Part shown: one piece after another, positions 2,104-59,491 of the stretch
How the letters are laid out: each line of letters begins with the position of its first letter
Numbering within the stretch: position 1 is the first letter of the stretch
Assembly (NCBI GenBank): GCA_045580085.1
Contig: JAZNND010000039.1
Location: forward strand, 11,387 to 75,386
Direction: 5' to 3'
DNA: 64,000 bases
Origin: Eubacteriales bacterium
GTDB lineage: Bacteria; Bacillota; Clostridia; Oscillospirales; CAG-272
Notes under the pieces: model-generated
Seen by the model: only the letters and a program-made list of their open reading frames with translations
What the model was told of the DNA's origin: nothing
The model's database searches: none
Position numbers and translations under genes: made by a program

Positions 2104-2910
2104 ATGGATTACACTGTTGAAAAAATTGAACCAAAAGAAAAAGATTTTTCGGTAAGCACAGGTAACATCTTTTGTTACCGCGCCCACATACATTCTTATT
2201 ACGAGATCATTTTATACGAGCCGTTTTGTGGAAATGTAACGGTGAACGAAAGAAAACTCGGTATGAAAAGTTATACTTGTGTTATGATTGCACCGTGGGA
2301 GTTGCACAAAATTGAAGTCGCAGAGAGAACTAAGGCGAATTTTATTAAAATAAGGGTTAGGTCGGAAGTTTTTGACGCAAAACGCTCCTATCCGTCTTTT
2401 GTTTTAAAGAAAATTGAATCAAACGATTTTCTTATTGCGATGTTTCACGAACTTTTGCAAAATGGTTTTTCGGAGCAATATGTATATCATATCGTTAACG
2501 CAATTGTGTTGCAGATCATTTCACGTGGCGAAACTGTGGGAGGGCTTAAGAGAGGAGAGAAATACCGATTGGCATTGGAGGCAGCCAAAATCGTACATGT
2601 GGATTTTTCATTTTCTATATCGGAAAGTGACGTGGCAAAACGCATTTCGATTTCTCCTCAATATCTTTCCAAAATATTCAAACAAATTTTTGGGGTTGGC
2701 TTTTCGGATTATCTTATAGATATTCGCTTGCGCCATGTCGCAAATTTACTGATCGAAACGGAAAAATCAATTACCGAAATTTGCTACGAAAGCGGATTTG
2801 GAAATTTTTCTCACTTTCTGCGAAGCTTTAAGAGAAAATATCATTTAACACCCCGCGAATTCAGAAAAAACAGATCTTGCGTTTTGGAGCAGGGTTTATT
2901 AGAGCAGTGA
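2104..2910 (+). CDS. AraC family transcriptional regulator (cupin N-domain + HTH)
   Basis: 268 aa. C-terminal AraC-type double HTH ('SPQYLSKIFKQIFGVGFSDYL...ITEICYESGFGNFSHFLRSFKRKYHLTPREFR'). Divergent from the GH gene at 48-1985. Confidence 0.85.
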   Translation: MDYTVEKIEPKEKDFSVSTGNIFCYRAHIHSYYEIILYEPFCGNVTVNERKLGMKSYTCVMIAPWELHKIEVAERTKANFIKIRVRSEVFDAKRSYPSFVLKKIESNDFLIAMFHELLQNGFSEQYVYHIVNAIVLQIISRGETVGGLKRGEKYRLALEAAKIVHVDFSFSISESDVAKRISISPQYLSKIFKQIFGVGFSDYLIDIRLRHVANLLIETEKSITEICYESGFGNFSHFLRSFKRKYHLTPREFRKNRSCVLEQGLLEQ

Positions 2911-2976
2911 TATGAAAAATTCTTTATCATAAGGTTGCATTTTTGTACTACGAGCGCACAAAAAAGCCTAACGCAA

Positions 2977-3328
2977 TGGGTGTTGTCCTTATCGGAGAAA
3001 TAAAATAAGGGTATGGGCATAGCCCGAGGCATTTGTTAAACAAATGCGAAACTGGCGATAAAACAGAAGAGAGTTAACGGTTTTAGCCATTAACTCTCTT
3101 TTTCTGCTTTGTGAAGTTTTTGCTGACGCAAAAGTGAAGTTGTGCAGATGCTTTGCATCAAGCACAGTGAAGTTGTTCGCCACAGGCTCACAGTGAAGTT
3201 AAGTTTGCTATTACTTCGCCGTAGGCGAAACTTCACTCACGAAGTGAACTTCACTATCGCAGATAACTTCACTTGCCCGAAGGGCAAACTTAGTTTTAGC
3301 GTGTTTTCCGTTAAGGATAACACGCTAA
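2977..3328. repeat. 352-nt MITE-like insertion inside a terminator hairpin loop, carrying inverted arrays of the 9-mer AGTGAAGTT/AACTTCACT
   Basis: It is flanked by the two arms (2960-2975 and 3330-3345) of a hairpin that is contiguous at 9143-9176. It has imperfect terminal inverted repeats, an internal hairpin with a T-run at 3067-3103, and no ORF with protein-like sequence. Confidence 0.55.
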
Positions 3329-3536
3329 CTGCGTTAGGCTTTTTTGAACGATTGCTTCCTTCGGAAGTGAAGTGCGCTTCGCGCGTGAGGTGTGCCTTCG
3401 GCACGATGATAGGAACACATCACTGCGACCGCAGGGAGCAACATCACTATGCGAAGCATAACATCACTTTGGCGAAGCCAAAACTTCACTAAGTCTCAAA
3501 GTCCTTGATTTCGGGGGACTTTTTTGGTTTTTAGGG
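3329..3536 (+). repeat. Intergenic mini-hairpin repeat element, copy 1
   Basis: About 209 nt, nearly identical over its 3' two-thirds to 9159-9376. It consists of small TTC/GAA-capped hairpins separated by AACATCACT/AACTTCACT and ends in a terminator. Confidence 0.8.
3499..3525 (+). terminator. Rho-independent terminator closing repeat copy 1
   Basis: Stem aagtcc/ggactt with an 11-nt loop, followed by TTTTTT. Confidence 0.6.
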
Positions 3537-3633
3537 CAAAAATTTAAGAAATTACCTTGTGACAACTCCTTGCGAACCATCGGGGCTTGAACCCTCAACA
3601 ATACAAAATATATCTATTATTTTTGAAAACCTA

Positions 3634-3664
3634 TTGACTCTCCCATAAGGGGAGGGTGTATAAT
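3634..3664 (+). promoter_or_regulatory. MerR-type promoter with 19-bp spacer and operator dyad
   Basis: TTGACT (3634-3639), a 19-nt spacer, then TATAAT (3659-3664). The spacer contains the dyad ACTCTCCC-ataag-GGGAGGGT (3637-3657). It lies 27 nt upstream of the MerR-family gene. Confidence 0.7.
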
Positions 3665-3690
3665 TGATATTGAAATGGAGGTGAATACCT

Positions 3691-4494
3691 ATGATTCGTA
3701 TAGGAGATTTTTCGAAGCTTTCCAAAATATCAATTAAAGCGCTGCGATACTATGACAAAATCGGTCTTTTGAAGCCTGCCATGATCGATAGCGCGACACA
3801 ATATCGGTATTATACGGTCGAACAGTTGGAAATCATCCGTTTAATTTCCATGTATAAAGATGCAGGCTTGACAAACGATATGATTTTAAAACTGATTCAC
3901 CAAACGGGCGATGCGTATATGTTACTTGAATATCAGAAACAAGTTCTTACTGAACGTGCCCAGGAAATCAAGAGAGCTTTGTCCACGCTTGATATATTAC
4001 TTGGGGAGCAAAGCAGACAGCAGTATGAGGCGAGCATAAAACGTGTGGAAAAACGTTTGGTGTATTGTTGTCGAGGCTATGTTGCAAACGTTGAGAGTAT
4101 TCATGAGTTTGTAAAATGCTGTTCATCAGAACTTTTAAAAACCAATCCTAACATCAAATTTTCTGAACCCGATTACTGCTGTGTGATCTATCCGGATGAC
4201 GGATATCGCGAATCCAATATATTTATTGAATATGCGCAATCTGTGGACAGAGTAGGTGTGGATACAGAAATTGTAAAATTCAAAGAGATTGAACCGATCA
4301 CAGCCATCAGTGTGATACACTATGGGAAATATGATACCTTGCGTGATGCGTATCTTTTTGCCGTTAACTGGGCGCGGAAAAATGGATATGTGCTTGCGGG
4401 AGAACCGAGAGAACGGTATATTCACGGTGCGTGGGACAGAAAAGAAGAAGCGGAGTGGGTTACGGAATTGCAGTTGCCCGTAACGGAGAAATAA
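3691..4494 (+). CDS. MerR family transcriptional regulator with GyrI-like effector-binding domain (BmrR-like)
   Basis: 267 aa with a GGAGGTG SD. N-terminal 'IGDFSKLSKISIKALRYYDKIGLLKP' is a MerR HTH. A coiled-coil linker is followed by a ~150-aa C-terminal domain. Confidence 0.85.
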   Translation: MIRIGDFSKLSKISIKALRYYDKIGLLKPAMIDSATQYRYYTVEQLEIIRLISMYKDAGLTNDMILKLIHQTGDAYMLLEYQKQVLTERAQEIKRALSTLDILLGEQSRQQYEASIKRVEKRLVYCCRGYVANVESIHEFVKCCSSELLKTNPNIKFSEPDYCCVIYPDDGYRESNIFIEYAQSVDRVGVDTEIVKFKEIEPITAISVIHYGKYDTLRDAYLFAVNWARKNGYVLAGEPRERYIHGAWDRKEEAEWVTELQLPVTEK

Positions 4495-5385: not shown

Positions 5386-6525
5386 ATGGACAGAAAAATA
5401 AAACTTTATAGCGACGGTATACATGATGATACAAATTCGGTACAAGCAATGCTGGATCAATGCGGAACGGTTGAAATACCGGACGGACAATATTTGATAA
5501 GTAAGCCGTTGATCATCCACAGTAACACACATTTAAAGCTTGCGGAACACGCTACGTTACGTCTTGCGGATGGGGCAAATTGTTCTATCCTGGACAATGA
5601 TGGTCTTTACAATGACGAAACAAACGTAAACATTATCATCGAGGGTGGAATTTGGGACGGAAATCATATGATGCAAGAGCGTCAAAAGATTCCGAACGAG
5701 TGTCGTCCGGGGGATGAAAACGAAGATAAGGTTTGCAACAAGGAAACCTATATTTCCAATATTTACACAGTATTTATGGTGCGATTGGTTCATACGCAAC
5801 GTTTGCAAGTCAAAAATCTGACTTTTAAAAATCCGACAAGCTATGCCATTCATATTGCGGATAGCCGTTATTTTAATGTGGAAAATATCACCCTTGATTA
5901 CGATCTTTTAAAACCGAATATGGACGGAATTCATATCCAGGGTCCTGCGCGATATGGCAAAATTCAAAATATATTCGGAAATGCCAACGATGATCACGTA
6001 GCACTCTGTGCGAACGGAACGATACGAAGTGAAATCACGCACGGAGATATTGAGGATGTGGATATCAACGGGATTTACTGTGATAACGGATATACGGGTG
6101 TGAGGTTGCTTTCCCGTGGAGATGCGATTCGAAACATTCATATTTCCAATATACACGGCGAATTTCGTTTTTACGCGGTATCCCTAACGCATCATTATCC
6201 GCTTCGTGAAGATAAGCCAATTTTGCTTGAAAACATACACATTTCGGACATATATGCTTCAAAGAGCCACGCTGAGTGTGCGGAGAATCACAAGAATGCA
6301 GTAGAGAACGGCGCACTGATTTGGTTAGAAAAAGGAATTATCTGCCGAAACGTAACTGTTGAAAATGTTTATCGAAATGAAAGGAGTATCCGTACTAAAG
6401 CACCTACGGTACGTATTAGTGAAAACGTGGTTGCAGAGAATTTGCAGTTTAAGAATATTAACAATGTATTTACGGGCGAATCCTTGACATCAATAGAAAA
6501 CAATAGTGAATATGTTGTGTTGTAA
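5386..6525 (+). CDS. Right-handed beta-helix protein, pectate-lyase-3 / GH28-like
   Basis: The ORF track starts at 5353. The ATG at 5386 follows GAAAGGAG. 'DGIHDDTNSVQAMLDQCGTVEIPDGQYLISKPLII' is the typical N-terminus of this fold. Repeated 'I.I....N..I.N' coils, no signal peptide. Confidence 0.6.
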   Translation: MDRKIKLYSDGIHDDTNSVQAMLDQCGTVEIPDGQYLISKPLIIHSNTHLKLAEHATLRLADGANCSILDNDGLYNDETNVNIIIEGGIWDGNHMMQERQKIPNECRPGDENEDKVCNKETYISNIYTVFMVRLVHTQRLQVKNLTFKNPTSYAIHIADSRYFNVENITLDYDLLKPNMDGIHIQGPARYGKIQNIFGNANDDHVALCANGTIRSEITHGDIEDVDINGIYCDNGYTGVRLLSRGDAIRNIHISNIHGEFRFYAVSLTHHYPLREDKPILLENIHISDIYASKSHAECAENHKNAVENGALIWLEKGIICRNVTVENVYRNERSIRTKAPTVRISENVVAENLQFKNINNVFTGESLTSIENNSEYVVL

Positions 6526-6868
6526 TTTTGTCCTGTAATCACAAAAAATTCCGTACACGCGAGTGTGCGGAATTTTTACTTTTTACCTTTTCACTTTTCA
6601 CTAAATTGGCGTGTACGGAATTTTAGGTAATAGGAAATAGTGAATAGTGAAAAAGTAAAGGTTGATTTGCTTTGCAAATCTTCATTTTATTAAGTTGCAT
6701 TTTTGTACTATGAGTTCATCGTTACAGGACGATTTTACAACCTGTGGCAAAAAGCCTTGTTTTACAAGGCTTTTTTGTCGTTTTGGGGCAAAAAAACGAG
6801 CGAAAAAATTAATCCAACTCTTTGCGAACCTTCGGGGCTTGAACCCTCGACAATATCGCAGTTTTGAA

Positions 6869-9097: not shown

Positions 9098-9142
9098 TAA
9101 GGGGCAATTTTCACAAGTTGTCAAATTGACCTCCAAACACAC

Positions 9143-9176
9143 AAAAAAGTCTAACGCAACTGCGTTAGGCTTTTTT
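9143..9176. terminator. Bidirectional terminator hairpin (intact version of the split hairpin at 2960/3330)
   Basis: aaaaaaGTCTAACGCAacTGCGTTAGGCtttttt. Confidence 0.7.
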
Positions 9177-9376
9177 GAACGATGTGTTCCGCAAGCGGAA
9201 CGTGATGCTTCCTTCGCACGTGAGGTGTGCCTTCGGCACGATGATAGGAACACATCACATCACTGCGACCGCAGGGAGCAACATCACTATGCGAAGCATA
9301 ACATTACTTTGGCGAAGCCAAAACTTCACTAAGTCTCAAAGTCCTTGATTTCGGGGGACTTTTTTGGGCTTTTAGC
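9159..9376 (+). repeat. Intergenic mini-hairpin repeat element, copy 2
   Basis: Aligns with 3329-3536. It differs by hairpin substitutions and a 5-nt indel (cacatcacATCACtgcg). Confidence 0.8.
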
Positions 9377-10796: not shown

Positions 10797-10939
10797 CAAG
10801 TTGTAATTTTGTCCTGTAACCACAAAACGAAATAGCTTGAACTTCTTTTCAGTGAAAAGATTGTTCGGGCTATTTTCTTTTTTTGAATTTTTAGCTTCTA
10901 TAATATCGTTACAAATTTATTTCACAAGGAGATTTTGTA

Positions 10940-11026
10940 ATGAACAAGAAGAAAACTGTATTTGAAAATGATTTCAATATTAACGAGGAGCAAATGGATT
11001 CTTTGGCGAAGCCAAAACTTTACTAA
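10940..11026 (+). CDS. Hypothetical 28-aa peptide (MNKKKTVFENDFNINEEQMDSLAKPKLY)
   Basis: AAGGAG SD 8 nt upstream. The last 7 codons plus the stop lie in the partial repeat copy. Confidence 0.25.
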   Translation: MNKKKTVFENDFNINEEQMDSLAKPKLY

Positions 11027-11066
11027 AACCTCAAAGCTTTTGATTTAGAGGGCTTTTCGTTTTTTC
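11001..11066 (+). repeat. Intergenic mini-hairpin element, partial copy 3 (last hairpin + word + terminator)
   Basis: ctttggcgaagccaaaactTtactaaAAcctcaaag... aligns with 3467-3526. The terminator stem carries compensatory changes. Confidence 0.65.
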
Positions 11067-22306: not shown

Positions 22307-25102
22307 ATGAAAAAAATCTTTTTTTACCTTCTTGCCGCTTTTTTGATTTTTGCTTTGGTCGGTTGTGACGTTGATTTGAAGGACCCGGAGCAAGAGGATG
22401 GGAGAGAAGCGGACGAAAATGGAGAAAACAATGACGGCGCAGACGCGCGCGTTCCTTTTCAAGCGTTCTACGTGCCGAATTCGCTCAGCAAAACGGAATA
22501 TCATCCGGGTGATCTTTTTGACTGTTCGGGTGCGCAGATCAAGATTCTATATGATAACGACACCGTGGAAACGATCGCTGTAACGCAGGACATGGTTGGC
22601 GAGGTGCGCTTCAATGAGCTTGGTGCTGTTACCGTTTACATACGTTGCTCGATTGGCGGCGTTCCTTTTGAAATTACCGTTAGCGTTAATGTAAGCGATC
22701 CGCTTTTGGCTGCCAAAGAAGCGGCTGTGGCGAAGATTCAGGCAAACGAGCTTGCCGTAGCGAATGCAAGCGACGGGCGCGTGGCGGAAATGCTTGTCGA
22801 TTACGAAGCGAAAATCCGCGCTGCCGACACGAAAGACGCGATCGACGCTTGGGTTTTGGCATTTGAAACAGAGATTGAGGCATATTTTACCGCCAAAGCG
22901 CAAGCGTTTGCGGATATTGCCGCGGTGGACTATTCGGTTCTGACAGAGCAGTTTAAAGAGAGGGCAGCCTCCGCCTTTGCGAAAGCAAACGCAGATGTGG
23001 CGGCGGCGCGCACATCGGATGAAATGGCTCAAATCGTTCTGGCATATCGGGAAGAGATTGCCGCGCTCATAGAAGAGCAGGATTTTTATACATATAAAGA
23101 AGCGGCTGTGGCTAAGATTCAAGCAAACGAGCTTGCCGTAGCGAACGCAAGCGACGGGCGCGTGGCGGAAATGCTTGTCGATTACGAAGCGAAAATCCGC
23201 GCTGCCGACACGAAAGACGCGATCGACGCTTGGGTTTTGGCATTTGAAACGGAGATTGAGGCATATTTTACTGCCAAAGCGCAAGCGTTTGCGGATATTG
23301 CCGCGGTGGACTATTCGGTTTTGACAGAGCAGTTTAAAGAGAGGGCGGACTCCGCCTTTGCGAAAGCAAACGCAGATGTGGCGGCGGCGCGCACATCGGA
23401 TGAAATGGCTCAAATCGTTCTGGCATATCGGGAAGAGATTGCCGCGCTCATAGAAGAGCAGGAGAGTCATATCTCTAGCCTGATCAATGAAAAAATTCGT
23501 CTTTTAATCAAAATAGAGGATTACATCGAGCGTATTACGTTTTTGAAGTCCGAAATTGAGAGCTACATGGATGCGCCTTGTAAAGAAGAGTATATTGCGG
23601 GGTTGGAATCTGCTTTGAAAGATCTTGCATATTGGCAAGATTATGTTCTACTTGCCTTGGATTTAAACGGTATTGAGGATGAGATTGATAAAATCTACCA
23701 AGAAAATGCCCGAACGCCCCTCGATGATCTTTACGATGCCTTGAAGGATGCTCTTTTTGGCGGCGCGGAGGACGGCATCACCGTTCTTCCCGGTGCTTAC
23801 ATCCGAGAAGAAAGCACGGGTGAGCTGATTTGCACCTCTATGACTGCAGAGGATGCCATCTGGGAGCTGCTTTTCTTTGTCGAAGTGGAGTATTCGGAAT
23901 GTGTAGCGATCTTTGGCGAAGCATTTGCCGAACGGCAGTTTACGGCATATTATCCTTTGGGTGCGAAAGAAACGGTTAATTTGAGCAGCTATATTAATGT
24001 GCTTTCCGAAGTCTATAATTCACTGCTCGAGATGCAGCTTGATGCGGTAAATGTTATTCAAGCGATTGATGCGCTCACGCGTGCGCAGAGCACCGATAGA
24101 GATATTGCCTTGACAGACGCTTGGGCGAAACTCAAGGAATGGGGCGAAAAACACCAAATTTTCTCTTTGCAGTTGGATATCACCGATGTCCTTAATAATC
24201 TTGTTTTTGATAAACGCTATGCCGGTATTTTTCGAATCACGGATGCTGATACGTTTTTGGAATATGAGCTTGACGAATACGTCTTTACCAAGGACTATAT
24301 GGTCAAATACTTTGTTCCCAATTATGATATTTTGGTCATGGTTACCCTAGAAGAGGAGATTAAGATAGTAGAACAGCTTGTCAGAGATATTCCGGAGTAC
24401 ATTATTTACGATGTGCGGGAAGATGTGGACTCTCATGCCGCAATTCAAGCTGCCAAATATGCGCGCAATGATTTCATTTGCCGCTATGGCATGAAAATTT
24501 ACGATATGTTTGCTCTTGTGGATGGCACGGATGAACTTCAATACAAGATAAAATGGGCAGAGAAAGAGTATGAGGAACTCACCAATATGGCTAATGAAAT
24601 CAATGAGAGATGGATTCCTTCTTTGCCGGCAGATGTCTCCGAGATTGTGATCGATGATTATGAAGGTCAAAATCCCATTCTCAAGTATGCCTATGATGCA
24701 TATATTGAATTTGCCAAGCGTAACGATGATGCAGACGGTAATCTTTACACCGACGTTATCACCGAGGAAGTACATTTGTTAGAGTGCATCGACAAATACA
24801 TTGAGCTTGTTTATACGGAAGAAAAATGTGTTCTTGCGCCCGCCAAAATCCGTGCACATGCCGATGCGCGTTTGCAATCGATAGAGGCGGATGAAGAGGA
24901 ACTCCGTTTGGCAATTTCGAATCTTGCGGATGAGTTGATCGGCGAATTGAGTGAAGTCACCTACGATTTTGGTGCGTTGCCCAACGAACCTATCAATAAA
25001 TTCAACCGTATCGCCGTTTTGGATGCTAATTTGAGTAAAATCTTGGAAGAATTTTTGTGCGACGCCGCGAGACAGATCAACGAATTGAGTATCCCCGAGT
25101 AA
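22307..25102 (+). CDS. Large lipoprotein with a bacterial Ig-like domain and Ala-rich helical repeats
   Basis: 931 aa. Signal peptide with lipobox 'FALVGC'. 'YHPGDLFDCSGAQIKILYDNDTVETIAV' resembles a Big-type domain. Contains an internal 127-aa duplication. Confidence 0.75.
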   Translation: MKKIFFYLLAAFLIFALVGCDVDLKDPEQEDGREADENGENNDGADARVPFQAFYVPNSLSKTEYHPGDLFDCSGAQIKILYDNDTVETIAVTQDMVGEVRFNELGAVTVYIRCSIGGVPFEITVSVNVSDPLLAAKEAAVAKIQANELAVANASDGRVAEMLVDYEAKIRAADTKDAIDAWVLAFETEIEAYFTAKAQAFADIAAVDYSVLTEQFKERAASAFAKANADVAAARTSDEMAQIVLAYREEIAALIEEQDFYTYKEAAVAKIQANELAVANASDGRVAEMLVDYEAKIRAADTKDAIDAWVLAFETEIEAYFTAKAQAFADIAAVDYSVLTEQFKERADSAFAKANADVAAARTSDEMAQIVLAYREEIAALIEEQESHISSLINEKIRLLIKIEDYIERITFLKSEIESYMDAPCKEEYIAGLESALKDLAYWQDYVLLALDLNGIEDEIDKIYQENARTPLDDLYDALKDALFGGAEDGITVLPGAYIREESTGELICTSMTAEDAIWELLFFVEVEYSECVAIFGEAFAERQFTAYYPLGAKETVNLSSYINVLSEVYNSLLEMQLDAVNVIQAIDALTRAQSTDRDIALTDAWAKLKEWGEKHQIFSLQLDITDVLNNLVFDKRYAGIFRITDADTFLEYELDEYVFTKDYMVKYFVPNYDILVMVTLEEEIKIVEQLVRDIPEYIIYDVREDVDSHAAIQAAKYARNDFICRYGMKIYDMFALVDGTDELQYKIKWAEKEYEELTNMANEINERWIPSLPADVSEIVIDDYEGQNPILKYAYDAYIEFAKRNDDADGNLYTDVITEEVHLLECIDKYIELVYTEEKCVLAPAKIRAHADARLQSIEADEEELRLAISNLADELIGELSEVTYDFGALPNEPINKFNRIAVLDANLSKILEEFLCDAARQINELSIPE
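22715..23461 (+). repeat. Near-perfect tandem duplication (2 x 366 bp, 381-bp period) inside the lipoprotein gene
   Basis: 22715-23080 against 23096-23461. By eye fewer than ten substitutions, in frame, with one amino-acid change (A to D). Confidence 0.9.
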
Positions 25103-40068: not shown

Positions 40069-43000
40069 TTATTTTCGAATATTTCCATCGATGCAATAGA
40101 CGATGTAGAAAGAGGTCTCTTGGTCCCAATTGATGTCTTTTTCGATGGCTTTCCATTCTGCCTTGGTGCCGGCAAAATGGATGCTTTCAAGGGAGAAACA
40201 ATGGTAGAACGCATTGTAGTCAATGTTTGCGGTGCTCTTGGGGATGGTTATAGATGAAAGATTCTCACAGTCTAAAAATGCATATGCGTGGATATACACT
40301 ACTCCTTCCGGAATCGTGATGGTAGTTATGTTGCATGCCTCGAATGCACGAATGTTGATACTCGTCACACTGCCGTCGGTGGGGATTACGCTGTTTTTAC
40401 ATCCCGTAATCAAAGCTTTGCTTTTCGTTTCAATTAAACAGTTACCCGCACTGTGATAATTCATGTTTTTTGAACCTACTGTAATGGATGTAAGGCTGGT
40501 ACAAGAAGAAAACGGATTGCCGGTGATGCAGATGACACTATCCGGAATAATGACAGAGTCAAGATTAAAGCAGTTGTTGAATGCTGCATTGCCGATGTGT
40601 GTGACACTGTCGGGGATAATGATGGAACCCAGATTGTAGCAGTTGTTGAATGCATTATCACTGATGTATGTGACAGTGTTGGGGATGGTTAAGGAGGTGA
40701 GAGTTGCGCAATTGGAGAATGCGGAATAGTTGATACCGATAACCGGTTTGCCTTTATAAGAAGGAGCAATGACAATATCTTCATCTGTCACTGTGCCGAT
40801 GCCGCTGACAAAATAGGCGTCACCGTTGTTCGTTGAGCTATATTCAAGACCTATCGTGAAGGGCGGCTTTAATGTTTCATTGTAGTAGACTGTATAGGCG
40901 TTGGTGTTGGCATCCCAATTTGCGGTCTTTTCGATAGCGTCCCATTGTTTTTGTGTACCGCCAAAATAGATAGAGACAAGGCTTTGGCAACGGTAGAACG
41001 TGTTATGACTGATATAGGTGATACTGTTTGGGATGGAGACGGCAGTGAGTCGAAGGCAGTTATAGAACGCGCTATCACCGATATGCGTGACACTGTCGGG
41101 GATGAAGACGGTAGTAAGGTTACAGCAATAGCGAAATGCATAATCACCGATGTGTGTGACACTGTTTGGGATAGCGATAGAAGTGAGACGGTAGCAGTCA
41201 TGGAATGCGCCCATACCGATAGAAACGACGCTACCATCTGCCGGAATAACGCTGTTCTCGCATCCTAAAATCAAAGTTTTGCTTTCTGTTTCAATCAAGC
41301 AATTGCTTGCACTGTGATATACGAGATTTTTATTTTTGACCGTGATAGAGGTGAGTCCAGAACAATTAAAGAATGCGTTTTGACCTATGGTCGCAACTTT
41401 ATGAGGGATAACAATGGCGGTAAGACCGTGGCAATAGCGGAAGGCAGAATCTCCAATGGAAATAACAGCATCGGGAATGAAGATGGATGTAAGCCCGGAG
41501 CAACCATAGAAAGCACACTTGCCAATGGAGGCGATGTTTTTGGAGATGGAGATGGACGTAAGTCCGGAACAACCATAGAATGTATAATCACCGATGAAAG
41601 TGACACCATCGGGGATGGAGAAAGAAGTGAGTCCGGAACAGCAATAAAACGAGTCATTGCCGATGAAAATGACACTGTCGGGTGTTGAGAAAGAAGTAAG
41701 CCTAGAACAGTTATAGAACGCAGCCTCGCCGATGAAGGAGAGTTGACTTTTCGGCGCAAATGTTACCGTTTGCAAGTTCCCACAATTATAAAATGTATAA
41801 TCGCCAATGCTTTTTATACTATCTGAAATTGCGACGGCAGTAAGATTCGAGCAGGCATAGAATGCACAATGACCGATGGAAGTGACACTGTCAGGAATAG
41901 AGATAGTGGTAAGCCCGGAACAGTTATAGAACGTACAATGATTGATGGAAGTAACACCGTCAGGAATAGAGACGGAGGTAAGCTCGGAACAGTTATAGAA
42001 CGCACAATTACCGATGAAAGTGGCAGCGTCAGGAATAGAGACGGAGGTAAGCTCGGAACAGTTATAGAAAGCATAATTACCGATGGAAGTGACATCGTCA
42101 GGAATAGAGACGGAGATGAGTCCGGCGCAGCCATAGAACGCATAATCGGCAATACAAACTGTTCCGTTTTTGATCTCATATGAACCGGAAAGCGAGTTGT
42201 TTGCTCTAATCAAATGTTGATCTATATAAAGAACACCGTTTTCCCATTTAGCTTCGCTGTTATAGTATGCAGTATCGTTGAATGCGCTGTTGCTAACAGA
42301 GGTGACATTTTTGCGGATGGAGATCGAGAGAAGGTTGGTGCAATTTTGAAATGCGGCCTTGCTGATAACACCGTTAGAGATTATAACAGAAGTGAGGTCG
42401 TGGCAATTTTTGAACGCCATCTCACCAACAAAGCGGACATTTTGGGGGATGAAAACAGAGATGAGACTTTTGCAATTTTCAAATGCGTTGTTGCCAATAA
42501 AAGCGACGCTGTTGGGAATGATAATGGATTTAAGGTCGGAGCAATTATAGAACGCATTATCAGCGATACAAATGGTTTCATTTCTAATCATATATGAAAT
42601 AGAAAGTGAGCTTTTTGCTTTAATCAAAAAAGATCCTATGTAAAGAACATCATCTTCCCAATTAGCTTCTTTGTTATAATATCCGGTGTTTTGGAACGCT
42701 TGGTCACCTATGTAGGCGACAGTATCGGGGATGGTGACGGATTCAAGTTGGTTGCATTCATAGAAGGCACGTTCGGCAATACAAACTGTTCCGTTTCTGA
42801 TGGCATATGAACCGGAAAGTGATGTTTTTGCCTCAATCAAATTCTTTCCGATATAAAGCACATCGTTTTGCCAGTTGGATTTATCATTATAAAATCCCGT
42901 GCTTTCAAACGCGAAATCGCCAATGGAAGTGATGCCGTCGGGAAGGGAGATGGAGGTAAGCTTTCGGCAATTATAGAACGCGCTATTGCCAATGGATGTG

Positions 43001-44172
43001 ACACTATCGGGAAGGGAGATGGAGGTAAGACTGTAGCAACCCGAGAATGCGCCGTTACCAATGAAAGTGACACTTGGTGGGATGAAAATGGAGGGAAGGT
43101 TATAACACCCCTTGAATGCGTTGTCTCCGATACCAACAACCGGTTTTTCACTGAAAAAAAGGGGAATGGAAATGCCTCTGTCTATGTGCTTATCTACAAT
43201 GCCGCTGACAAGATAGCCTGTGCCATCTTCTGTTAGAGTAAATTTAAGGCTTGGTATGTAGTAGGGATTCATGTCCATTACATCATCGGTGTTGCCATCG
43301 TCAATGCAATAGACGGTAGCTCCCCAGGAAACGCCCTTTGAGACTGCCTCCCATTCTGTTTGAGTGCCGTTAAAATAAATGAAAGCGAGTCCGGTGTGAT
43401 ATGTAAACGCATCTCGGGAGATAGAAGCCACACTGTTGGGAATGAGGATGGAAACGAGATTGATACCGCAAAATGCGCCAGTGCTGATAGAAGTAACGCT
43501 GCCGTCGTTTGGTATAAGACTGTTTTGGCATCCGGCAATCAAAGTTTTACTTGCTGTTTCAATCAAACAATTGTTTGTGCTGTGATATTTAGGGTTATCT
43601 TTGCCTACAGTGATGGAAGAAAGCTTTGAGCAATAAGAAAACACTTCTTCACCGATACTTATAACACTTTTTGGAATTGTAACTGAGGTAAGACCGGAGC
43701 AGTCATAGAACGCACAATTGCCGATAGAAGTAACACTGTCTGGAATTGTGATAGAGGTGAGACTGGGGCAGCAATAGAATGTATGCTTGCTGATGGTGGT
43801 GACACTGTCGGGAATTGTGACGGAGGCAAGGTTTGAGCAATCTTTAAATGCCCCCCACCCGATGGACGTGATACCTCCGGAAATGGTAACGGATATGAGA
43901 CTATTGCAATCTTCAAACGCATAATCGTCGATGCCGATGACTGGTTTGTTTTTATAAGAAGAAGGGATTGTAATGATTGTGTCTGTTACTGTACCGATGC
44001 CACTGACAAGATAAGCGTCGCCATTTTCTGTTAGAGTATATTCCAAATCTATTTCGGCATCCGTTTTGATATCGGGTTTCTTTTCGTTGCCGAACGAGCA
44101 TGAGCTGCACGCGCTGAAAAGGCAAAGGAGCAAGCCGAGAATCAGGGCGAAAAATGCAAGTTTCTTTTTCAT
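40069..44172 (-). CDS. BspA-type leucine-rich-repeat (LRR_5) lipoprotein, three concatenated modules
   Basis: 1367 aa from the ATG at 44172. Lipobox 'LFSAC'. Dozens of ~23-aa units match 'I.IP.SVT.IG..AF..C..LTS'. Confidence 0.85.
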   Translation of the reverse strand: MKKKLAFFALILGLLLCLFSACSSCSFGNEKKPDIKTDAEIDLEYTLTENGDAYLVSGIGTVTDTIITIPSSYKNKPVIGIDDYAFEDCNSLISVTISGGITSIGWGAFKDCSNLASVTIPDSVTTISKHTFYCCPSLTSITIPDSVTSIGNCAFYDCSGLTSVTIPKSVISIGEEVFSYCSKLSSITVGKDNPKYHSTNNCLIETASKTLIAGCQNSLIPNDGSVTSISTGAFCGINLVSILIPNSVASISRDAFTYHTGLAFIYFNGTQTEWEAVSKGVSWGATVYCIDDGNTDDVMDMNPYYIPSLKFTLTEDGTGYLVSGIVDKHIDRGISIPLFFSEKPVVGIGDNAFKGCYNLPSIFIPPSVTFIGNGAFSGCYSLTSISLPDSVTSIGNSAFYNCRKLTSISLPDGITSIGDFAFESTGFYNDKSNWQNDVLYIGKNLIEAKTSLSGSYAIRNGTVCIAERAFYECNQLESVTIPDTVAYIGDQAFQNTGYYNKEANWEDDVLYIGSFLIKAKSSLSISYMIRNETICIADNAFYNCSDLKSIIIPNSVAFIGNNAFENCKSLISVFIPQNVRFVGEMAFKNCHDLTSVIISNGVISKAAFQNCTNLLSISIRKNVTSVSNSAFNDTAYYNSEAKWENGVLYIDQHLIRANNSLSGSYEIKNGTVCIADYAFYGCAGLISVSIPDDVTSIGNYAFYNCSELTSVSIPDAATFIGNCAFYNCSELTSVSIPDGVTSINHCTFYNCSGLTTISIPDSVTSIGHCAFYACSNLTAVAISDSIKSIGDYTFYNCGNLQTVTFAPKSQLSFIGEAAFYNCSRLTSFSTPDSVIFIGNDSFYCCSGLTSFSIPDGVTFIGDYTFYGCSGLTSISISKNIASIGKCAFYGCSGLTSIFIPDAVISIGDSAFRYCHGLTAIVIPHKVATIGQNAFFNCSGLTSITVKNKNLVYHSASNCLIETESKTLILGCENSVIPADGSVVSIGMGAFHDCYRLTSIAIPNSVTHIGDYAFRYCCNLTTVFIPDSVTHIGDSAFYNCLRLTAVSIPNSITYISHNTFYRCQSLVSIYFGGTQKQWDAIEKTANWDANTNAYTVYYNETLKPPFTIGLEYSSTNNGDAYFVSGIGTVTDEDIVIAPSYKGKPVIGINYSAFSNCATLTSLTIPNTVTYISDNAFNNCYNLGSIIIPDSVTHIGNAAFNNCFNLDSVIIPDSVICITGNPFSSCTSLTSITVGSKNMNYHSAGNCLIETKSKALITGCKNSVIPTDGSVTSINIRAFEACNITTITIPEGVVYIHAYAFLDCENLSSITIPKSTANIDYNAFYHCFSLESIHFAGTKAEWKAIEKDINWDQETSFYIVYCIDGNIRK

Positions 44173-44383
44173 GAGAGTGTCCTTTCCGCAAAAAGAAAAT
44201 AGATTTACAGGAGAACTTATGAAGATATAGTAACACATTTTTCGTTTTTTGTCAACATTTTGCTGTATAAAATGAGAGATATCGCGTGCTTTTGCTCGTT
44301 TTTTGCGTATGGCAAGTGTAGGCTCGATTGGCTTGAAAGCTTTCTTTGAGATCCGGGTTTCAAAAAGTCTTTTGCGAAAAGAC

Positions 44384-56030: not shown

Positions 56031-57161
56031 ATGAAAAAGTTATCCGTTCTTGATAAGAGAATCATCATGGAAAAGCCCGATTCGGTGCACAACTACTTTG
56101 CATGGCCGACCGTGATAACCTTGCGTGACGGTACGCTTGCCGCGGTTGCTTCGGGCTTTCGCTTTGACCATGTTTGCCCTTTCGGCAAGTCTGTCATTTC
56201 TTACAGCTATGACGGGGGAAAGAACTGGAGCGAGCCTGCTGCCGTGATCGATACCATCCTTGACGACCGTGACGCGGGCATTCTGAACTTCGGCGAAAAT
56301 GACGTTATTTTTACTTCCTTCAACAATTCGATTGCCTTCCAAAAGGGCAACGCCGGCACAAGAGAGGGAACGAATTTTGATTATATGCGCGCGTATCTTG
56401 CGCATGTCGAGAAATATGCCGATCTTGAAAAAGCGCAGATCGGTTCCACCTTTAAATTCAGCCGTGACGGCGGAAAAACCTGGGAAAAGACCATTCACCG
56501 TTCTCCCGTCACCTCCCCCCACGGTCCGTTGGAAACCGCAGACGGCAGACTTATTTATATCGGTAATGTGTTCGGTGTGTCTCCTTCGGTGCTTGAAAGC
56601 TGGGAGATCGACGGCAAGACGGGAGAAATGGTGAAGCTCGGCACGGTTCCCCCCATTGAGGGCGGTAAGTATCCTTCCTACGAGCCCCATGCCATTGAGC
56701 TTAAAGATGGGCGTATTCTTCTCATCATTCGCACCGATCATCAACCTCAAAATGCTACTTGGCAAAATGCCTACGATCTTTTTACGGTATATGAAAGCAT
56801 TTCTTGCGATGGCGGCAGAACCTTCAGCGTTCCTGCGCCTCTTACCCTTACGGAAGAGAGCTCCGCGGTTGCTGATCCCGCCACGCTTGGCGCGCCTCCG
56901 CACCTCTTCCGCCATTCCTCGGGGAAACTCATTCTTTCTTGTGCCACGCGCTTGCGCCCCTTTGGCATTCACATCCTCACGAGTACCGATGAGGGCAAGA
57001 GTTGGGATGTTCATGTGCTGACGCACGACGTTCCCGACACGGCGGACTTGGGATATCCAGCCACAACCGAGCTTTCGGACGGATCGCTCTATACCGTTTG
57101 GTATCAGCATACCGCGCTCGGTGAACCTGCGGTGATCTATGGCGCGAGGTGGACTTTTTAA
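56031..57161 (+). CDS. BNR/Asp-box sialidase-fold protein, paralog 1
   Basis: 376 aa. Asp-boxes SYDGGKNW, SRDGGKTW, SCDGGRTF, STDEGKSW. No signal peptide. Confidence 0.7.
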   Translation: MKKLSVLDKRIIMEKPDSVHNYFAWPTVITLRDGTLAAVASGFRFDHVCPFGKSVISYSYDGGKNWSEPAAVIDTILDDRDAGILNFGENDVIFTSFNNSIAFQKGNAGTREGTNFDYMRAYLAHVEKYADLEKAQIGSTFKFSRDGGKTWEKTIHRSPVTSPHGPLETADGRLIYIGNVFGVSPSVLESWEIDGKTGEMVKLGTVPPIEGGKYPSYEPHAIELKDGRILLIIRTDHQPQNATWQNAYDLFTVYESISCDGGRTFSVPAPLTLTEESSAVADPATLGAPPHLFRHSSGKLILSCATRLRPFGIHILTSTDEGKSWDVHVLTHDVPDTADLGYPATTELSDGSLYTVWYQHTALGEPAVIYGARWTF

Positions 57162-57188
57162 AACTGTGCGATTGGGGAAAATTACGAA

Positions 57189-58352
57189 ATGAAAAGATGC
57201 CATATCCTTGAAAAAACCGTTGTGATGCAAAAGCCCGATTCGGCGCACAACTATTTTGGCTGGCCGTCGATCGCCAAGCTTCCCGACGGTACGCTTTTGG
57301 CGGGTGCCTCGGGCTTCCGTATTGACCATGTCTGTCCTTTCGGCAAGGCGGTGCTTTCCTACAGCTATGACGAAGGCAAAACCTGGACAGCACCCATCCC
57401 CGTGATCGATACGCCGCTGGATGACCGCGATCTCGGACTTTTAGCGTACGGTGAAAATAAGGTGATTTGCACCTCTTTCAATAACAGCGTGGAGTTTCAG
57501 CGGTTGTGGCTCAGCTGGCGCGAGGAGAACCTTAAAAAAATGGAAGGGGAGAGTGCCAAAAGGGAAGCCGCGGCGCAGGCATACGTGCGCGCGTATTTGG
57601 ACTATGCGGATGTGTTTTATCCGAACCACGACGATTTTTACGGTTCGACCTTCCGCATGAGCTCTGACGGCGGCAAAACTTGGGGAGATTTAAAGTATTC
57701 TCCCGTCACCTGTCCGCACGGACCTTTGGCAACGGCGGATGGCAGACTCATTTACGTCGGCACTCCGATGGCGGATATTAAGCGCAAAGCCGCCGATCCG
57801 CGCATCCGCGCCTATGAGATTGCCGAGGACGGCACGATGACCGAGCTTGGCATCATTCCTCCCATTTCGGATGCGTACGGTAAGATCACTTCTTGCGAGC
57901 CGCATGCCATCGCATTAAGTAACGGCGACATTTTGGTACATATTCGCGCCGAGCGCAGAAAGAGCGAAAAAGATGTCTTTACGATCTACCAAACGGTGTC
58001 GAAAGATGGCGGAAGAAGCTTCCCCGTGCCCACACCCATCGTTCTTTCCAATGAGCAAGAGGTCGACAAAACCTTCCTTGGTGCGCCGCCTCACATCATG
58101 CGTCATTCCTCGGGTGCACTCTTTTGCCTTGTCGGCGTGCGCGACGGTAATGTCGGCGTTCGTGTTTTGAAGAGCGTCAACGAAGGAGAAAGCTGGGAAG
58201 TCATGGTGCTGACCGATGACGCGGTGAGCAACGATATCGGCTATCCTTCCACCGCCGAGCTTTCGGACGGCTCCTTCTACACTGTTTGGTACGAACGCCC
58301 TAACGACGAAGAGCCGGCAACCATACGCGGCGTCAGATGGATGGAAGGATAA
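57189..58352 (+). CDS. BNR/Asp-box sialidase-fold protein, paralog 2
   Basis: 387 aa, collinear with paralog 1 (SYDEGKTW, SSDGGKTW, SKDGGRSF, SVNEGESW). Confidence 0.7.
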   Translation: MKRCHILEKTVVMQKPDSAHNYFGWPSIAKLPDGTLLAGASGFRIDHVCPFGKAVLSYSYDEGKTWTAPIPVIDTPLDDRDLGLLAYGENKVICTSFNNSVEFQRLWLSWREENLKKMEGESAKREAAAQAYVRAYLDYADVFYPNHDDFYGSTFRMSSDGGKTWGDLKYSPVTCPHGPLATADGRLIYVGTPMADIKRKAADPRIRAYEIAEDGTMTELGIIPPISDAYGKITSCEPHAIALSNGDILVHIRAERRKSEKDVFTIYQTVSKDGGRSFPVPTPIVLSNEQEVDKTFLGAPPHIMRHSSGALFCLVGVRDGNVGVRVLKSVNEGESWEVMVLTDDAVSNDIGYPSTAELSDGSFYTVWYERPNDEEPATIRGVRWMEG

Positions 58353-58375
58353 AAAGCAAAGAGAGGTTTACAAAA

Positions 58376-59491
58376 GTGAAGAAAATTGAGCTGAAAGATA
58401 AAAAAGTGATCATGTCAAATCCGATGTCGGTGCACAACTATTTTGCTTGGCCTTCGGTGGCGAGACTCAAAAACGGTGTGCTCGCGGCGGTTGCTTCCGG
58501 TTTTCGTATGGAGCATATCTGCCCATTCGGCAAAACGGTTATCTCTTACAGTTATGACGAGGGAAAGACTTGGACTCTCCCGACGCCCGTTATTGATACG
58601 GTCTTAGATGACCGCGACGGCGGTATTCTTGCGTTTGGAGAATCGAGTGTGATTGTAACCTCCTTTAATAATTCCTTGGAGCGACAAGAGGAGTGGTCGG
58701 AATATTGGTTGAAGCCCGGCAACACGCGCCGCAATTACATCAACGGCTATATCGAACGCATTCACGCACAAGAGGATGAGCGCAAATATCTTGGCTCGAC
58801 CTTCCGCATCAGCCACGATAACGGTGTCAGCTGGGGACCGCTGATGAAATCTCCCATTACCTGTCCTCACGGTCCGCTTTTAACTGCTGACGGCAGGATC
58901 ATCTACATCGGAAGAACCTTTTCCGATCCTGTTTTGCCGCCCGTGCCGGATGAGATCCGCGCCTATGAGATCAACGGTGAGACGGGTGAGATGACCTATC
59001 TTGGCACGCTTCCCCATGTTGCCGACGATGGCGAAGGCAAATTCGGAGAGTACGAACCCCATGCTTTGATGCTTCCTTCGGGGAAAATCATCGTGCATGT
59101 CCGTGTGGAGCGCGGTGCTGACAACACAAGCGACAAGGTCTTTGCGGTGGCGCAAACCGAATCTTATGACGGCGGCAAAACGTTCACCCCCCTTCACTAC
59201 ATTCACGAATCCAAAACGATCGGTGCGCCCGCGCATATTCTGCGCCATTCCTCGGGTAAGCTCATTTCGGTGGTGGGGGATCGCATGGAGCCTTTTGGCA
59301 TCCGCGCTCTCATCAGCTCCGACGAGGGTGAAAGCTGGGAGGCGTATATTCTTGATGACGACGGCAAGCTACCCGATATCGGTTATCCCGCGACGGTAGA
59401 GCTTTCGGACGGCTCGCTTTATACCGTTTGGTATCAGCATCCCGAAAAGGGACAGCCCAGTCTTATCTTTGGCGCGAACTGGAAACTTTGA
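58376..59491 (+). CDS. BNR/Asp-box sialidase-fold protein, paralog 3
   Basis: A GTG start at 58376 gives an N-terminus (VKKIELKDKKVIMSNP) collinear with paralogs 1 and 2. The track start at 58337 overlaps the upstream gene. Confidence 0.65.
   Translation: MKKIELKDKKVIMSNPMSVHNYFAWPSVARLKNGVLAAVASGFRMEHICPFGKTVISYSYDEGKTWTLPTPVIDTVLDDRDGGILAFGESSVIVTSFNNSLERQEEWSEYWLKPGNTRRNYINGYIERIHAQEDERKYLGSTFRISHDNGVSWGPLMKSPITCPHGPLLTADGRIIYIGRTFSDPVLPPVPDEIRAYEINGETGEMTYLGTLPHVADDGEGKFGEYEPHALMLPSGKIIVHVRVERGADNTSDKVFAVAQTESYDGGKTFTPLHYIHESKTIGAPAHILRHSSGKLISVVGDRMEPFGIRALISSDEGESWEAYILDDDGKLPDIGYPATVELSDGSLYTVWYQHPEKGQPSLIFGANWKL

Follow-up and report, generated by a model that had tools for sequence, protein, structure and literature searches.

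Nested gene-less copies of a Gut-1-related mosaic palindromic element of gut Clostridia

What kind of element occupies positions 2958-3536 of a 64,000-nucleotide stretch of contig JAZNND010000039.1 (assembly GCA_045580085.1, an Eubacteriales bacterium of the Oscillospirales lineage CAG-272), where short words alternate with capped hairpins? This stretch, at its full length, is called the window here. The original prediction for the region, made from the sequence alone, had described a single array of mini-hairpins separated by a 9-nt word and had proposed an undescribed family of structured RNAs or of repeats resembling repetitive extragenic palindromes (REPs). We find that a palindromic element, mosaic in build and dispersed among gut Clostridia, occupies the region in two nested copies that lack genes, and that this element is a variant of the known Gut-1 motif, whose published model covers only half of the unit. 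The notion of a dispersed REP-like repeat family with conserved structure is supported by our analysis; that of a single array is not, as the region holds two oppositely oriented elements, one of which lies inside the other.

Nested copies in a split hairpin

The full unit comprises a head hairpin, three or four GTGAAGTT words, and then four complementary AACTTCAC words, with a short perfect hairpin between neighbors. The window contains three copies, which we call A, B, and B', and one fragment. Around A stand the two arms of a terminator-like hairpin, at 2959-2975 (CAAAAAAGCCTAACGCA, plus strand) and 3330-3346, each 17 nt long and 100% complementary to the other, 354 nt apart, with an A run before the first and a T run after the second. 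An uninterrupted paralog of this hairpin, in effect an 'empty site', lies at 9141-9176 on the plus strand with its arms only 2 nt apart, so 352 nt sit in the loop of a terminator-like hairpin. These 352 nt (2978-3329) are element A, a complete, gene-less copy on the minus strand with imperfect terminal inverted repeats, in which ~15 of 19 positions are complementary between 2978-2998 and 3309-3327. The host arms pair with each other in the minimum-energy fold. Homologs of A are present in 65 fetched loci (numbered below with the prefix L), the best being 83.5% identical over 237 nt. The original prediction had overlooked the split hairpin with its 352-nt insert, the opposite orientation of the halves, the fragment at 11001-11057, and a sub-threshold match to Gut-1.

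Read along the minus strand, A begins with its head hairpin (3328-3296; ttagcgtgttttcc-gttaa-ggataacacgctaa), which holds the 5'-terminal inverted repeat. Next comes a three-word, Gut-1-like half (3229-3295) with the palindromic end word AACTTAGTT and three GNA-capped mini-hairpins; in order, it reads as the palindromic word AACTAAGTT, a TGCCC/GGGCA hairpin, and three GTGAAGTT words with 9-nt hairpins between them. The center of A (3201-3228) contains a ttcgcc-GTA-ggcgaa hairpin and AAGTTTGC, which appear in this reading as a tcgcc/ggcga hairpin followed by GCAAACTT. The four-word half (3110-3200) follows: its words are of the GTGAAGTT type on the plus strand, at 3110, 3133, 3166, and 3192, and read AACTTCAC (F1-F4) on the sense strand of A, again with hairpins in between. 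Beyond it lies a long hairpin (3100-3067) with 14-nt arms that are 93% complementary, bordered by an A run on one side and a T run on the other and terminator-like in both directions; a minus-strand terminator-like site is called here, and the hairpin is conserved in L041, L095, L096, and L103. Two small hairpins, gggc-ata-gccc and gcatttgtt-a-aacaaatgc, occupy 3015-3047, a module that is inverted relative to L041, L095, and L096. A ends in its 3'-terminal inverted repeat (2978-2998, sense ...TCTCCGATAAGGACAACACCCA), an imperfect inverted version of the head that is also found in L041, L095, L096, and L051.

Element B (3330-3530, plus strand) starts where A ends, and the 3' arm of the invaded hairpin with its T run (3330-3346) doubles as its head hairpin. 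The left half of B (3347-3417) is decayed, with a remnant AACGAT, three TTC-capped hairpins (3356-3368, 3375-3385, and 3393-3405), and the degenerate words TGAAGT, GTGAGGT, and GATGATAGG. Its right half (3418-3490) carries the words ACATCACT, AACATCACT twice, and AACTTCACT, that is, forms of AACATCAC or AACTTCAC, separated by the hairpins tgcgaccgca, atgc-GAA-gcat (3449-3459), and ttggc-GAA-gccaa (3469-3481). Intact relatives in L065, L115, L054, and L051 show the undecayed GTGATGTT/AACATCAC version, and the odd spacer TGCGACCGCAGGGAGC of B is also present in L051. An intrinsic-terminator-like hairpin with its T run (3498-3530) closes B; the terminator predicted for the end of the array is indeed found, as a terminator-like site at 3498-3522 that is followed by the T run.

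The paralog B' (9141-9370, body 9177-9370, plus strand) is 89% identical to B and has a terminator of its own; the recurrence noted by the original prediction extends over 3330-3534 and 9161-9375, again at 89% identity. B' differs from B by a 5-nt duplication and by one swapped hairpin, in which cttcc-ttc-ggaag becomes gttccg-caag-cggaac. This swap is real, and hairpin structure is kept while hairpin sequence changes, as had been proposed. The remaining fragment (11001-11057, plus strand) retains the last hairpin, the last word, and the terminator of the element's 3' end, with 83% identity over 58 nt.

The words and inter-word hairpins listed in the original prediction are present throughout. 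AGTGAAGTT lies at 3133, 3166, and 3192 and TGTGAAGTT at 3110; AACTTCACT lies at 3229, 3247, 3265, and 3482 and AACATCACT at 3440 and 3460, with adjacent sense-strand words spaced by 18, 18, 20, and 22 nt (18-22 nt had been given). The variant word (ACATCACT) exists as claimed and maps to 3418-3425 (3414 had been given). Allowing one mismatch, we counted 26 matches to AACTTCACT in the window, where 12.8 would be expected (standard deviation 4.0), a count reached by none of 100 shuffles, and half of these matches (13 of 26) fall within 3110-3490. In addition to those of B, the hairpins between words include ttcgcc-GTA-ggcgaa (3215-3229), cac-GAA-gtg (3238-3246), atc-GCA-gat (3256-3264), and tgccc-GAA-gggca (3274-3286).

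We considered several known kinds of repeat and rejected each of them. A 116-codon reading frame (3142-3492) traverses the array; a coding repeat is at odds with word spacings that are not multiples of three, and the 5-nt duplication in B' is incompatible with conservation of the frame. DnaA boxes, iterons, or transcription-factor operators do not fit a spacing of 16-26 nt without helical phasing and with palindromic spacers, and the RNA of a type III toxin-antitoxin system failed on architecture. Integron attC sites have the order R''/L''...L'/R' (RYYYAAC...GTTRRRY) and extrahelical bases; here the word order GTGAAGTT...AACTTCAC places GTT before AAC, the stems are perfect, and the Rfam search gave no attC match. 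Clustered regularly interspaced short palindromic repeats (CRISPR) have repeats of 23-50 nt and unique, non-palindromic spacers; here the repeats are 8-9 nt and the spacers are palindromes of 7-25 nt, and the sole CRISPR-repeat match in the Rfam search had 14.7 bits (E = 9.7).

Other spacers in the first 11 kb of the window contain related or shared material. A 28-codon frame with a good ribosome-binding site (MNKKKTVFENDFNINEEQMDSLAKPKLY) lies at 10941-11057; over its final 9 codons and its terminator it shares 72-83% identity with the 3' end of B, and it could represent a small gene into which an element fragment was taken up or which such a fragment cut short. A gene-less counterpart built on heptamers lies at 6545-6653: it has two TTTTCAC words at 6588-6601 and, 38 nt away, the inverted GTGAATA/GTGAAAA at 6640-6653, and these heptamers adjoin an imperfect terminator-like hairpin (6545-6575) that is partly repeated at 6608-6624. 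Three more short intergenic modules are shared at 72-96% identity (2908-2954 with 6668-6714; 3563-3603 with 6815-6855; and 6519-6546, 9117-9144, and 10800-10827 with one another), which suggests recombination, or common promoter and terminator cassettes, among sugar-related genes.

The wider family, its relation to Gut-1 and its fold

At the Rfam gathering thresholds, the window yields only a tRNA. In E-value mode, the Gut-1 model (RF01706, curated cut-off 50 bits) matches 3225-3296 on the minus strand with 45.1 bits (E ~1e-7) over its full length, 3436-3516 on the minus strand with 39.5 bits, again over the full model, and 3346-3417 on the plus strand with 23.3 bits. Every window copy thus scores below the cut-off. 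The Gut-1 alignment spans model positions 1-77 with all three stems formed, and the homologous half-element in sister copies lies above the cut-off (57.4 bits in L120, 53.4 in L073, and 50.6 in L072); element A itself matches L120 at 78% over 207 nt. A seed member of the Rfam family, BAAZ01000095, viewed with its flanks, has the same full architecture with another word pair. The original prediction had named a match to an Rfam family as decisive against an undescribed family, and half of the unit is such a match, so that part of the prediction fails.

Gut-1 was reported from 43 human-gut sequences by Weinberg et al. in 2010, who classed it with certainty as an RNA, considered it not to be cis-regulatory, and assigned it no function (PMC2864571). 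The window elements share with it three short hairpins with GUGAAAU-like words between them, and among the seed members of Gut-1 there are in turn cases with the inverted-array architecture, cases located in a hairpin, and cases that lie before a gene of the family PF05635, discussed below. The window elements differ in that their word is GUGAAGUU or GUGAUGUU and that they score below 50 bits. The Gut-1 description has no complementary array, terminal repeats, hairpin-loop location, multi-copy nature, or gene link. In the literature that we searched, we did not find the full architecture, the hairpin-loop location, or the PF05635 link described, and searches on the word, on miniature inverted-repeat transposable elements (MITEs) in terminator loops, and on a link between PF05635 and heptamers turned up only the Gut-1 and Coxiella papers as relevant. 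The complete unit, its nested position in terminator loops, and its association with PF05635 genes and, by way of these genes, with heptamer repeats and the classical intervening sequences exceed any description that we found.

Scanning one genome per species with a three-word pattern, for which we estimate ~13 chance matches, identified at least 120 loci, and among the matches listed almost all are metagenome-assembled genomes (MAGs) of Clostridia. Their hosts come from ruminant, human, and other gut bins and include Christensenellales, Oscillospiraceae, Acutalibacteraceae, and Candidatus Scatosoma. The complete three-plus-four layout is found in 23 copies. Among the other arrays, some have a single word orientation, some have additional or duplicated units, and some add a second word (AATTCATG) in tandem, which makes the family a modular mosaic. 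Arrays are enriched at the 3' ends of genes, with 39 of 89 lying between convergent genes and 8 of 89 between divergent ones, and show no preferred orientation relative to flanking genes in the same 89 cases. A scan of viral sequences returned 34 matches, 33 of them coding tandem repeats. The only true arrays were in L130, a siphovirus-like contig with two copies, both intergenic, within the head and tail modules.

Insertion into a hairpin is not peculiar to the window. Full copies of 259-373 nt lie inside A-run/T-run hairpins with unrelated stems in L025, L041, L051, L063, L073, L095, L096, L099, and L120, of which L095 and L096 are two sites of one MAG, and the Gut-1 seed member BAAZ01000095 is bracketed by a 10-nt hairpin (GGGGCUGCCG/CGGCAGCCCC). 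One subfamily (the window copy, L041, L095, L096, L051, and L099) has common termini of ~20 nt in inverted orientation, and element A carries the terminal inverted repeats typical of a MITE; in other subfamilies (L063, L073, and L120), the head hairpins differ and terminal repeats are not clearly recognizable. The junctions permit a 2-nt target duplication (TT in the window, L095, and L096; AT in L041), with 0 or 1 nt equally possible, and L063 has a 14-nt direct repeat.

Three loci have features of a different kind. In L073 (7163-7195), the head palindrome of the element (TTTAGCGTGTTCTCC-GTTAA-GGATAACACGCTAAA), identical to that of A, stands alone in a terminator hairpin loop, as either a minimal unit or a footprint. 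L078 (650-960, minus strand) has two tandem arrays in the same orientation, four AACTTCAC words followed by four AATTCATG/AATTCATC words, which are unable to cross-pair. In L091, a 6S RNA gene (3880-4071, 58.1 bits) lies ~60 nt downstream of a full element.

The original prediction had also suggested that sense and antisense words could pair over long range, and comparison of the copies bears this out. For 13 diverse copies, RNAalifold predicts a ladder in which three of the AACTTCAC words take the three GTGAAGTT words as partners in reverse order, AAGTTT within the head word pairs with an AAACTT leading into the fourth AACTTCAC word, and the mini-hairpins sit at the junctions. In this predicted fold, the word helices are 8-10 bp long and the unit folds back so that its two ends meet. 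The ladder pairs in 98.2% of alignment cells, and 14 of its pairs show two-sided changes, amounting to 62 cells, with no one-sided change at all; none of 500 shuffles reached these values, and slid controls paired in only 35-43% of cells. The word helices are invariant within this subfamily. Across subfamilies, both word sets switch together, giving GTGAAGTT/AACTTCAC, GTGATGTT/AACATCAC (L051), GTGATATT/AATATCAC (a Gut-1 seed and L269), GTGAAAT/ATTTCAT (L268), and TCGATATG/CATATCGA (PF05635 loci of the L028 type). As a plus-strand RNA, 2950-3356 folds at -166.5 kcal/mol (z = -11.8), with host arms, terminal repeats, and ladder all paired.

The inter-word hairpins are almost always perfect: 202 of 206 distinct ones are fully Watson-Crick, mostly with GAA, GTA, or GCA triloops closed by C-G. 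Whichever strand is read, GNA caps go with AACTTCAC words and TNC caps with GTGAAGTT words, and the unit therefore has a polarity that is mirrored in its two halves. We also compared G-T with A-C mismatches as an indicator of the strand. Loose scoring gave 10 versus 0, and stricter scoring left 2 G-T in the 206 hairpins, too few for a strand call. The few wobbles, the triloops, and the 7-nt GCGTAGC-type units resemble stable DNA mini-hairpins. Stems of 3-6 bp would accept few wobbles in RNA too, and the hairpin data appear compatible with either RNA or single-stranded DNA.

The PF05635 partner and the competing explanations

The only recurrent neighbor among reading frames near arrays is PF05635, the 23S ribosomal RNA (rRNA) intervening-sequence protein (TIGR02436, 'four helix bundle protein'). 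Just 5 of the at least 120 loci carry such a gene (L001, L023, L077, L085, and L028), and no homolog was found within the 64-kb window. In L001, L023, L077, and L085, the gene starts 4-30 nt past the last AACTTCAC word; in L077, the gene stands between the right half, which comes first, and the left half, and its stop codon overlaps the head word. Two protein searches returned thousands of close homologs. All 27 distinct sequences inspected upstream of close homologs carry the element, and in every one the last word lies ~15-30 nt before the start codon. Sixteen of the 27 are of the L023 type, all with GTGAAGTT/AACTTCAC and following a U5-methyltransferase gene, and 11 are of the L028 type, all with TCGATATG/CATATCGA and in at least three genomic contexts. 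At the orthologous locus, TCGATATG/CATATCGA replaces the word pair throughout the array, whose architecture is kept. What seem to be multi-copy PF05635 matches are mostly one syntenic locus after the U5-methyltransferase gene.

The association is also seen outside Clostridia, where tblastn against plasmids and phages showed arrays of 7-nt words flanking PF05635 genes, usually inverted across the gene. On the plasmid records L267, L272, L274, L276, L277, and L278, the PF05635 genes are wedged between co-directional genes of operons and defense systems: between hsdS and hsdR of a type I system, between drmD of DISARM (defense island system associated with restriction-modification) and pglX of BREX (bacteriophage exclusion), between DUF1156 and a Swt1-HEPN gene, between adaptor and permease of a resistance-nodulation-division transporter, and before cas1. 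A count statistic of at least 6 for flanking words was obtained for 10 of 13 PF05635 genes from several phyla and for 8 of 319 control genes. Two human-fecal phage contigs have Gut-1-type arrays directly before a PF05635 gene, one with GTGATATT and the other with GTGAAAT, the Gut-1 consensus word; to our eye, without alignment, the GTGATATT contig matches a Gut-1 seed member.

The gene that follows PF05635 in Clostridia is hypervariable (L023 1061-1960; L235-L266), encoding a helix-turn-helix and T5orf172 protein in L023 and unrelated proteins of 160-351 aa without Pfam matches elsewhere, and this downstream locus behaves like a variable island.

We think it probable that the window elements are gene-less, intervening-sequence-like selfish DNA that lodges in hairpin loops and is tolerated by folding shut. 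The targets of such a family would be hairpin loops, terminators here and rRNA helices in the classical case. A self-closing insert would let the invaded hairpin still form, and most full copies examined also appear to bring a terminator-like hairpin of their own; closed fold and terminator together could make insertion nearly neutral, which would explain selection for perfect capped hairpins and complementary word arrays. The words may be uniform because pairing between arbitrary partners has to remain possible as arrays grow and shrink, or because a trans-acting factor reads them, for which the four-helix-bundle protein is the obvious candidate. Unit duplications are observed in L086. The window copies would be non-autonomous derivatives.

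A close parallel is provided by the intervening sequences of 23S rRNA in Leptospira and Coxiella. In Coxiella, the sequence sits in helix 45 with terminal inverted repeats forming a 28-bp stem, a variable number of GACAGAT heptamers precedes the S23p frame, and the authors recall an old idea that this frame serves mobility (PMC4990558). Like these, the window element is an insert in the loop of a pre-existing hairpin whose terminal repeats close a stem, short words precede a PF05635 frame in its relatives, and the classical elements are regarded as selfish (PMC4990558). Unlike them, it targets a terminator hairpin rather than an rRNA helix, its window copies lack a gene, and its words alternate with mini-hairpins rather than forming pure tandem heptamers. 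Hairpin-loop insertion is seen in the window and nine other loci, and a PF05635 frame inside the element is absent from the window.

Other small repeats resemble the element in part. Like MITEs, it is short (259-373 nt, 352 nt here), has no frame, bears imperfect terminal repeats, and occurs in many copies with nested insertion; unlike them, it has no known cognate transposase (no related transposase-encoding autonomous element was found in 419 frames near arrays), its terminal repeats are not found in all subfamilies, its target duplication is ambiguous and at most 2 nt, and its internal hairpins covary, which those of ordinary MITEs do not. The REP and bacterial interspersed mosaic elements (BIMEs) of Enterobacteria and the BOX elements of pneumococcus are likewise dispersed modular extragenic palindromes at gene 3' ends in both orientations, and they are transcribed as part of mRNAs. 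This family differs from REP in conserving the linker word, whereas REP conserves the hairpin; we found neither a conserved palindrome with a GTAG-type flank nor a REP-associated tyrosine transposase (RAYT) gene. We know of no REP or BOX element inside a terminator loop or linked to PF05635. Cyanobacterial short tandemly repeated repetitive (STRR) sequences also consist of tandem 7-nt words, and inverted arrays flank PF05635 genes on plasmids of Nostoc, Planktothrix, and Dolichospermum; according to Vioque in 1997, STRR tracts reportedly lie inside the P12 hairpin of RNase P RNA genes. STRR sequences are, in contrast, pure tandem repeats without interleaved hairpins and belong to another phylum. 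Finally, the C-G-closed GNA triloops, with 7-nt GCGTAGC and GCAAAGC between words, recall d(GCGNAGC) DNA mini-hairpins and Streptomyces telomere palindromes, which are features of single-stranded DNA ends.

Several observations weigh against reading the window elements as loop-lodging selfish DNA. Because head hairpin and terminal repeats are not conserved across the L063, L073, and L120 subfamilies, one insertion mechanism for all copies is not established, and the target duplication of at most 2 nt is ambiguous. Among 419 reading frames within 2.5 kb of arrays, there was no transposase-like cluster and no associated recombinase, and PF05635 is, to our knowledge, neither a known transposase nor credited with a catalytic activity. 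PF05635 identity does not track the word: L023 and L028 are 59% identical with unrelated words, and L023 and L001 are 50% identical with the same word. The array upstream of PF05635 is syntenic and conserved in many samples and looks host-level or cis-regulatory. Folded by itself, element B shows no unusual stability (z = -1.9). Filled and empty sites could be compared only between paralogs inside the window; exact-protein look-ups, a metagenome scan with an AraC-type protein, and flank searches among the fetched loci found no orthologous strain pair. The step from hairpin-loop location to movement by a defined mechanism is one that we infer.

The synteny before PF05635 leaves room for a cis-regulatory role, and the arrays might be leaders or binding platforms for that gene, serving autoregulation or processing by RNase III, with the window copies as remnants after gene loss rather than as transposition products. 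The placement of the last word ~15-30 nt before the start codon in every close homolog inspected, which persists where the word changes, would suit this, as would the cut that RNase III makes at the first heptamer of the Coxiella intervening sequence (PMC4990558). We nevertheless regard such an origin as unlikely for the window copies, because most loci, the window included, have no PF05635 gene, A sits inside a hairpin that is intact elsewhere rather than beside a decayed gene, ten copies occupy unrelated terminator-like loops, and protein identity does not follow the word. A free-standing structured small RNA acting in trans, for instance one whose 8-nt single-stranded words sponge a protein or an RNA, seems rather unlikely as well. 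It would account for the strong hairpin covariation, for the terminator-like site past the last sense-strand word in A and B, and for one-orientation arrays (L040, L057, and L064), whose words are unable to pair and would be exposed, and it agrees with the rating of Gut-1 by Weinberg et al. (PMC2864571). However, no promoter-like site was found in 2700-3800, that is, in or next to the element, and A and B abut head to head with no room for one; copies are multiple, nested, inside other hairpins, and randomly oriented to neighboring genes, and the 62 covarying cells include no one-sided (G-U) change. Triloops also dominate, and hairpins of the 7-nt GCGTAGC type, which would be weak as RNA, occur.

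Two further proposals start from DNA. A REP/BIME-type element could be moved on single-stranded DNA hairpins by an HUH tyrosine (RAYT-like) transposase, with the word as cleavage or guide motif and the host using copies for mRNA stabilization or termination. The location at gene 3' ends, the mosaic build with units in both orientations, and a unit oriented alike on both strands speak for this, and the C-G-closed GNA triloops and near-perfect Watson-Crick stems fit DNA hairpins, given what is known of d(GCGAAGC)-type mini-hairpins. We judge it quite improbable: REP conserves hairpin sequence and varies its linkers, the reverse of what is seen here, no Y1/HUH gene is enriched near arrays, and some subfamilies have terminal inverted repeats, which HUH elements lack. 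Alternatively, arrays might be records of an insertion process that duplicates its target, the mini-hairpin being the inserted unit and the word the copied target, which would match words that are identical within an element while its hairpins differ, whole arrays that switch word together, and the unit duplications of L086. This is highly improbable: from genome to genome, hairpins in corresponding positions are homologous and differ by substitutions in both partners of a pair, we found no enzyme associated with the arrays, and the end word AACTNAGTT and the three-plus-four layout are fixed.

Beyond the window, selfish DNA that folds shut in hairpin loops leads to a broader proposal, which we offer tentatively and with more doubt than belief: PF05635 (S23p, Avd-like) genes and gene-less derivatives could together constitute a single class of very small mobile elements that spans phyla. 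Its hallmark would be inverted arrays of a 7-9-nt word, as pure heptamers in cyanobacteria, Bacteroidota, and spirochaetes and as hairpin-interleaved 'Gut-1' arrays in Clostridia. Its members would insert into hairpin loops and narrow intergenic gaps, among them rRNA helices, terminators, and sites within operons and defense loci, and persist since their arrays zip the insert shut, and the four-helix-bundle protein, or a partner, might act on the arrays. If true, 23S rRNA intervening sequences, STRR repeats, and Gut-1 would share an origin and a mechanism of mobility that can be put to the test. Since 2010, Gut-1 has remained an orphan motif, and questions about the origin, mobility, and protein function of S23p intervening sequences date from the early 1990s. 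Should the link hold, Gut-1 would be a folding module of a selfish element rather than a stand-alone small RNA, terminator hairpin loops would be a safe-haven target for mobile DNA, and the widely annotated four-helix-bundle proteins would gain a nucleic-acid partner. The arrays also account for long, odd intergenic regions in Clostridial bins and for spurious frames such as 3142-3492.

Other features of the window

Three further repeat features of the window concern protein-coding genes. On the minus strand, 40069-44238 encodes a 1389-aa BspA-type leucine-rich-repeat protein, and this explains the DNA repeats with a 69-nt period at 40.3-44 kb. Two 300-nt segments, 22715-23014 and 23096-23395, are 97% identical and 381 nt apart within a 931-aa frame (22307-25102) and constitute an internal domain duplication. 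Finally, 56031-59491 holds a tandem set of three paralogs, each of ~380 aa; the first has BNR/sialidase-like repeats, and DNA identity among the three is 70-84% in blocks.

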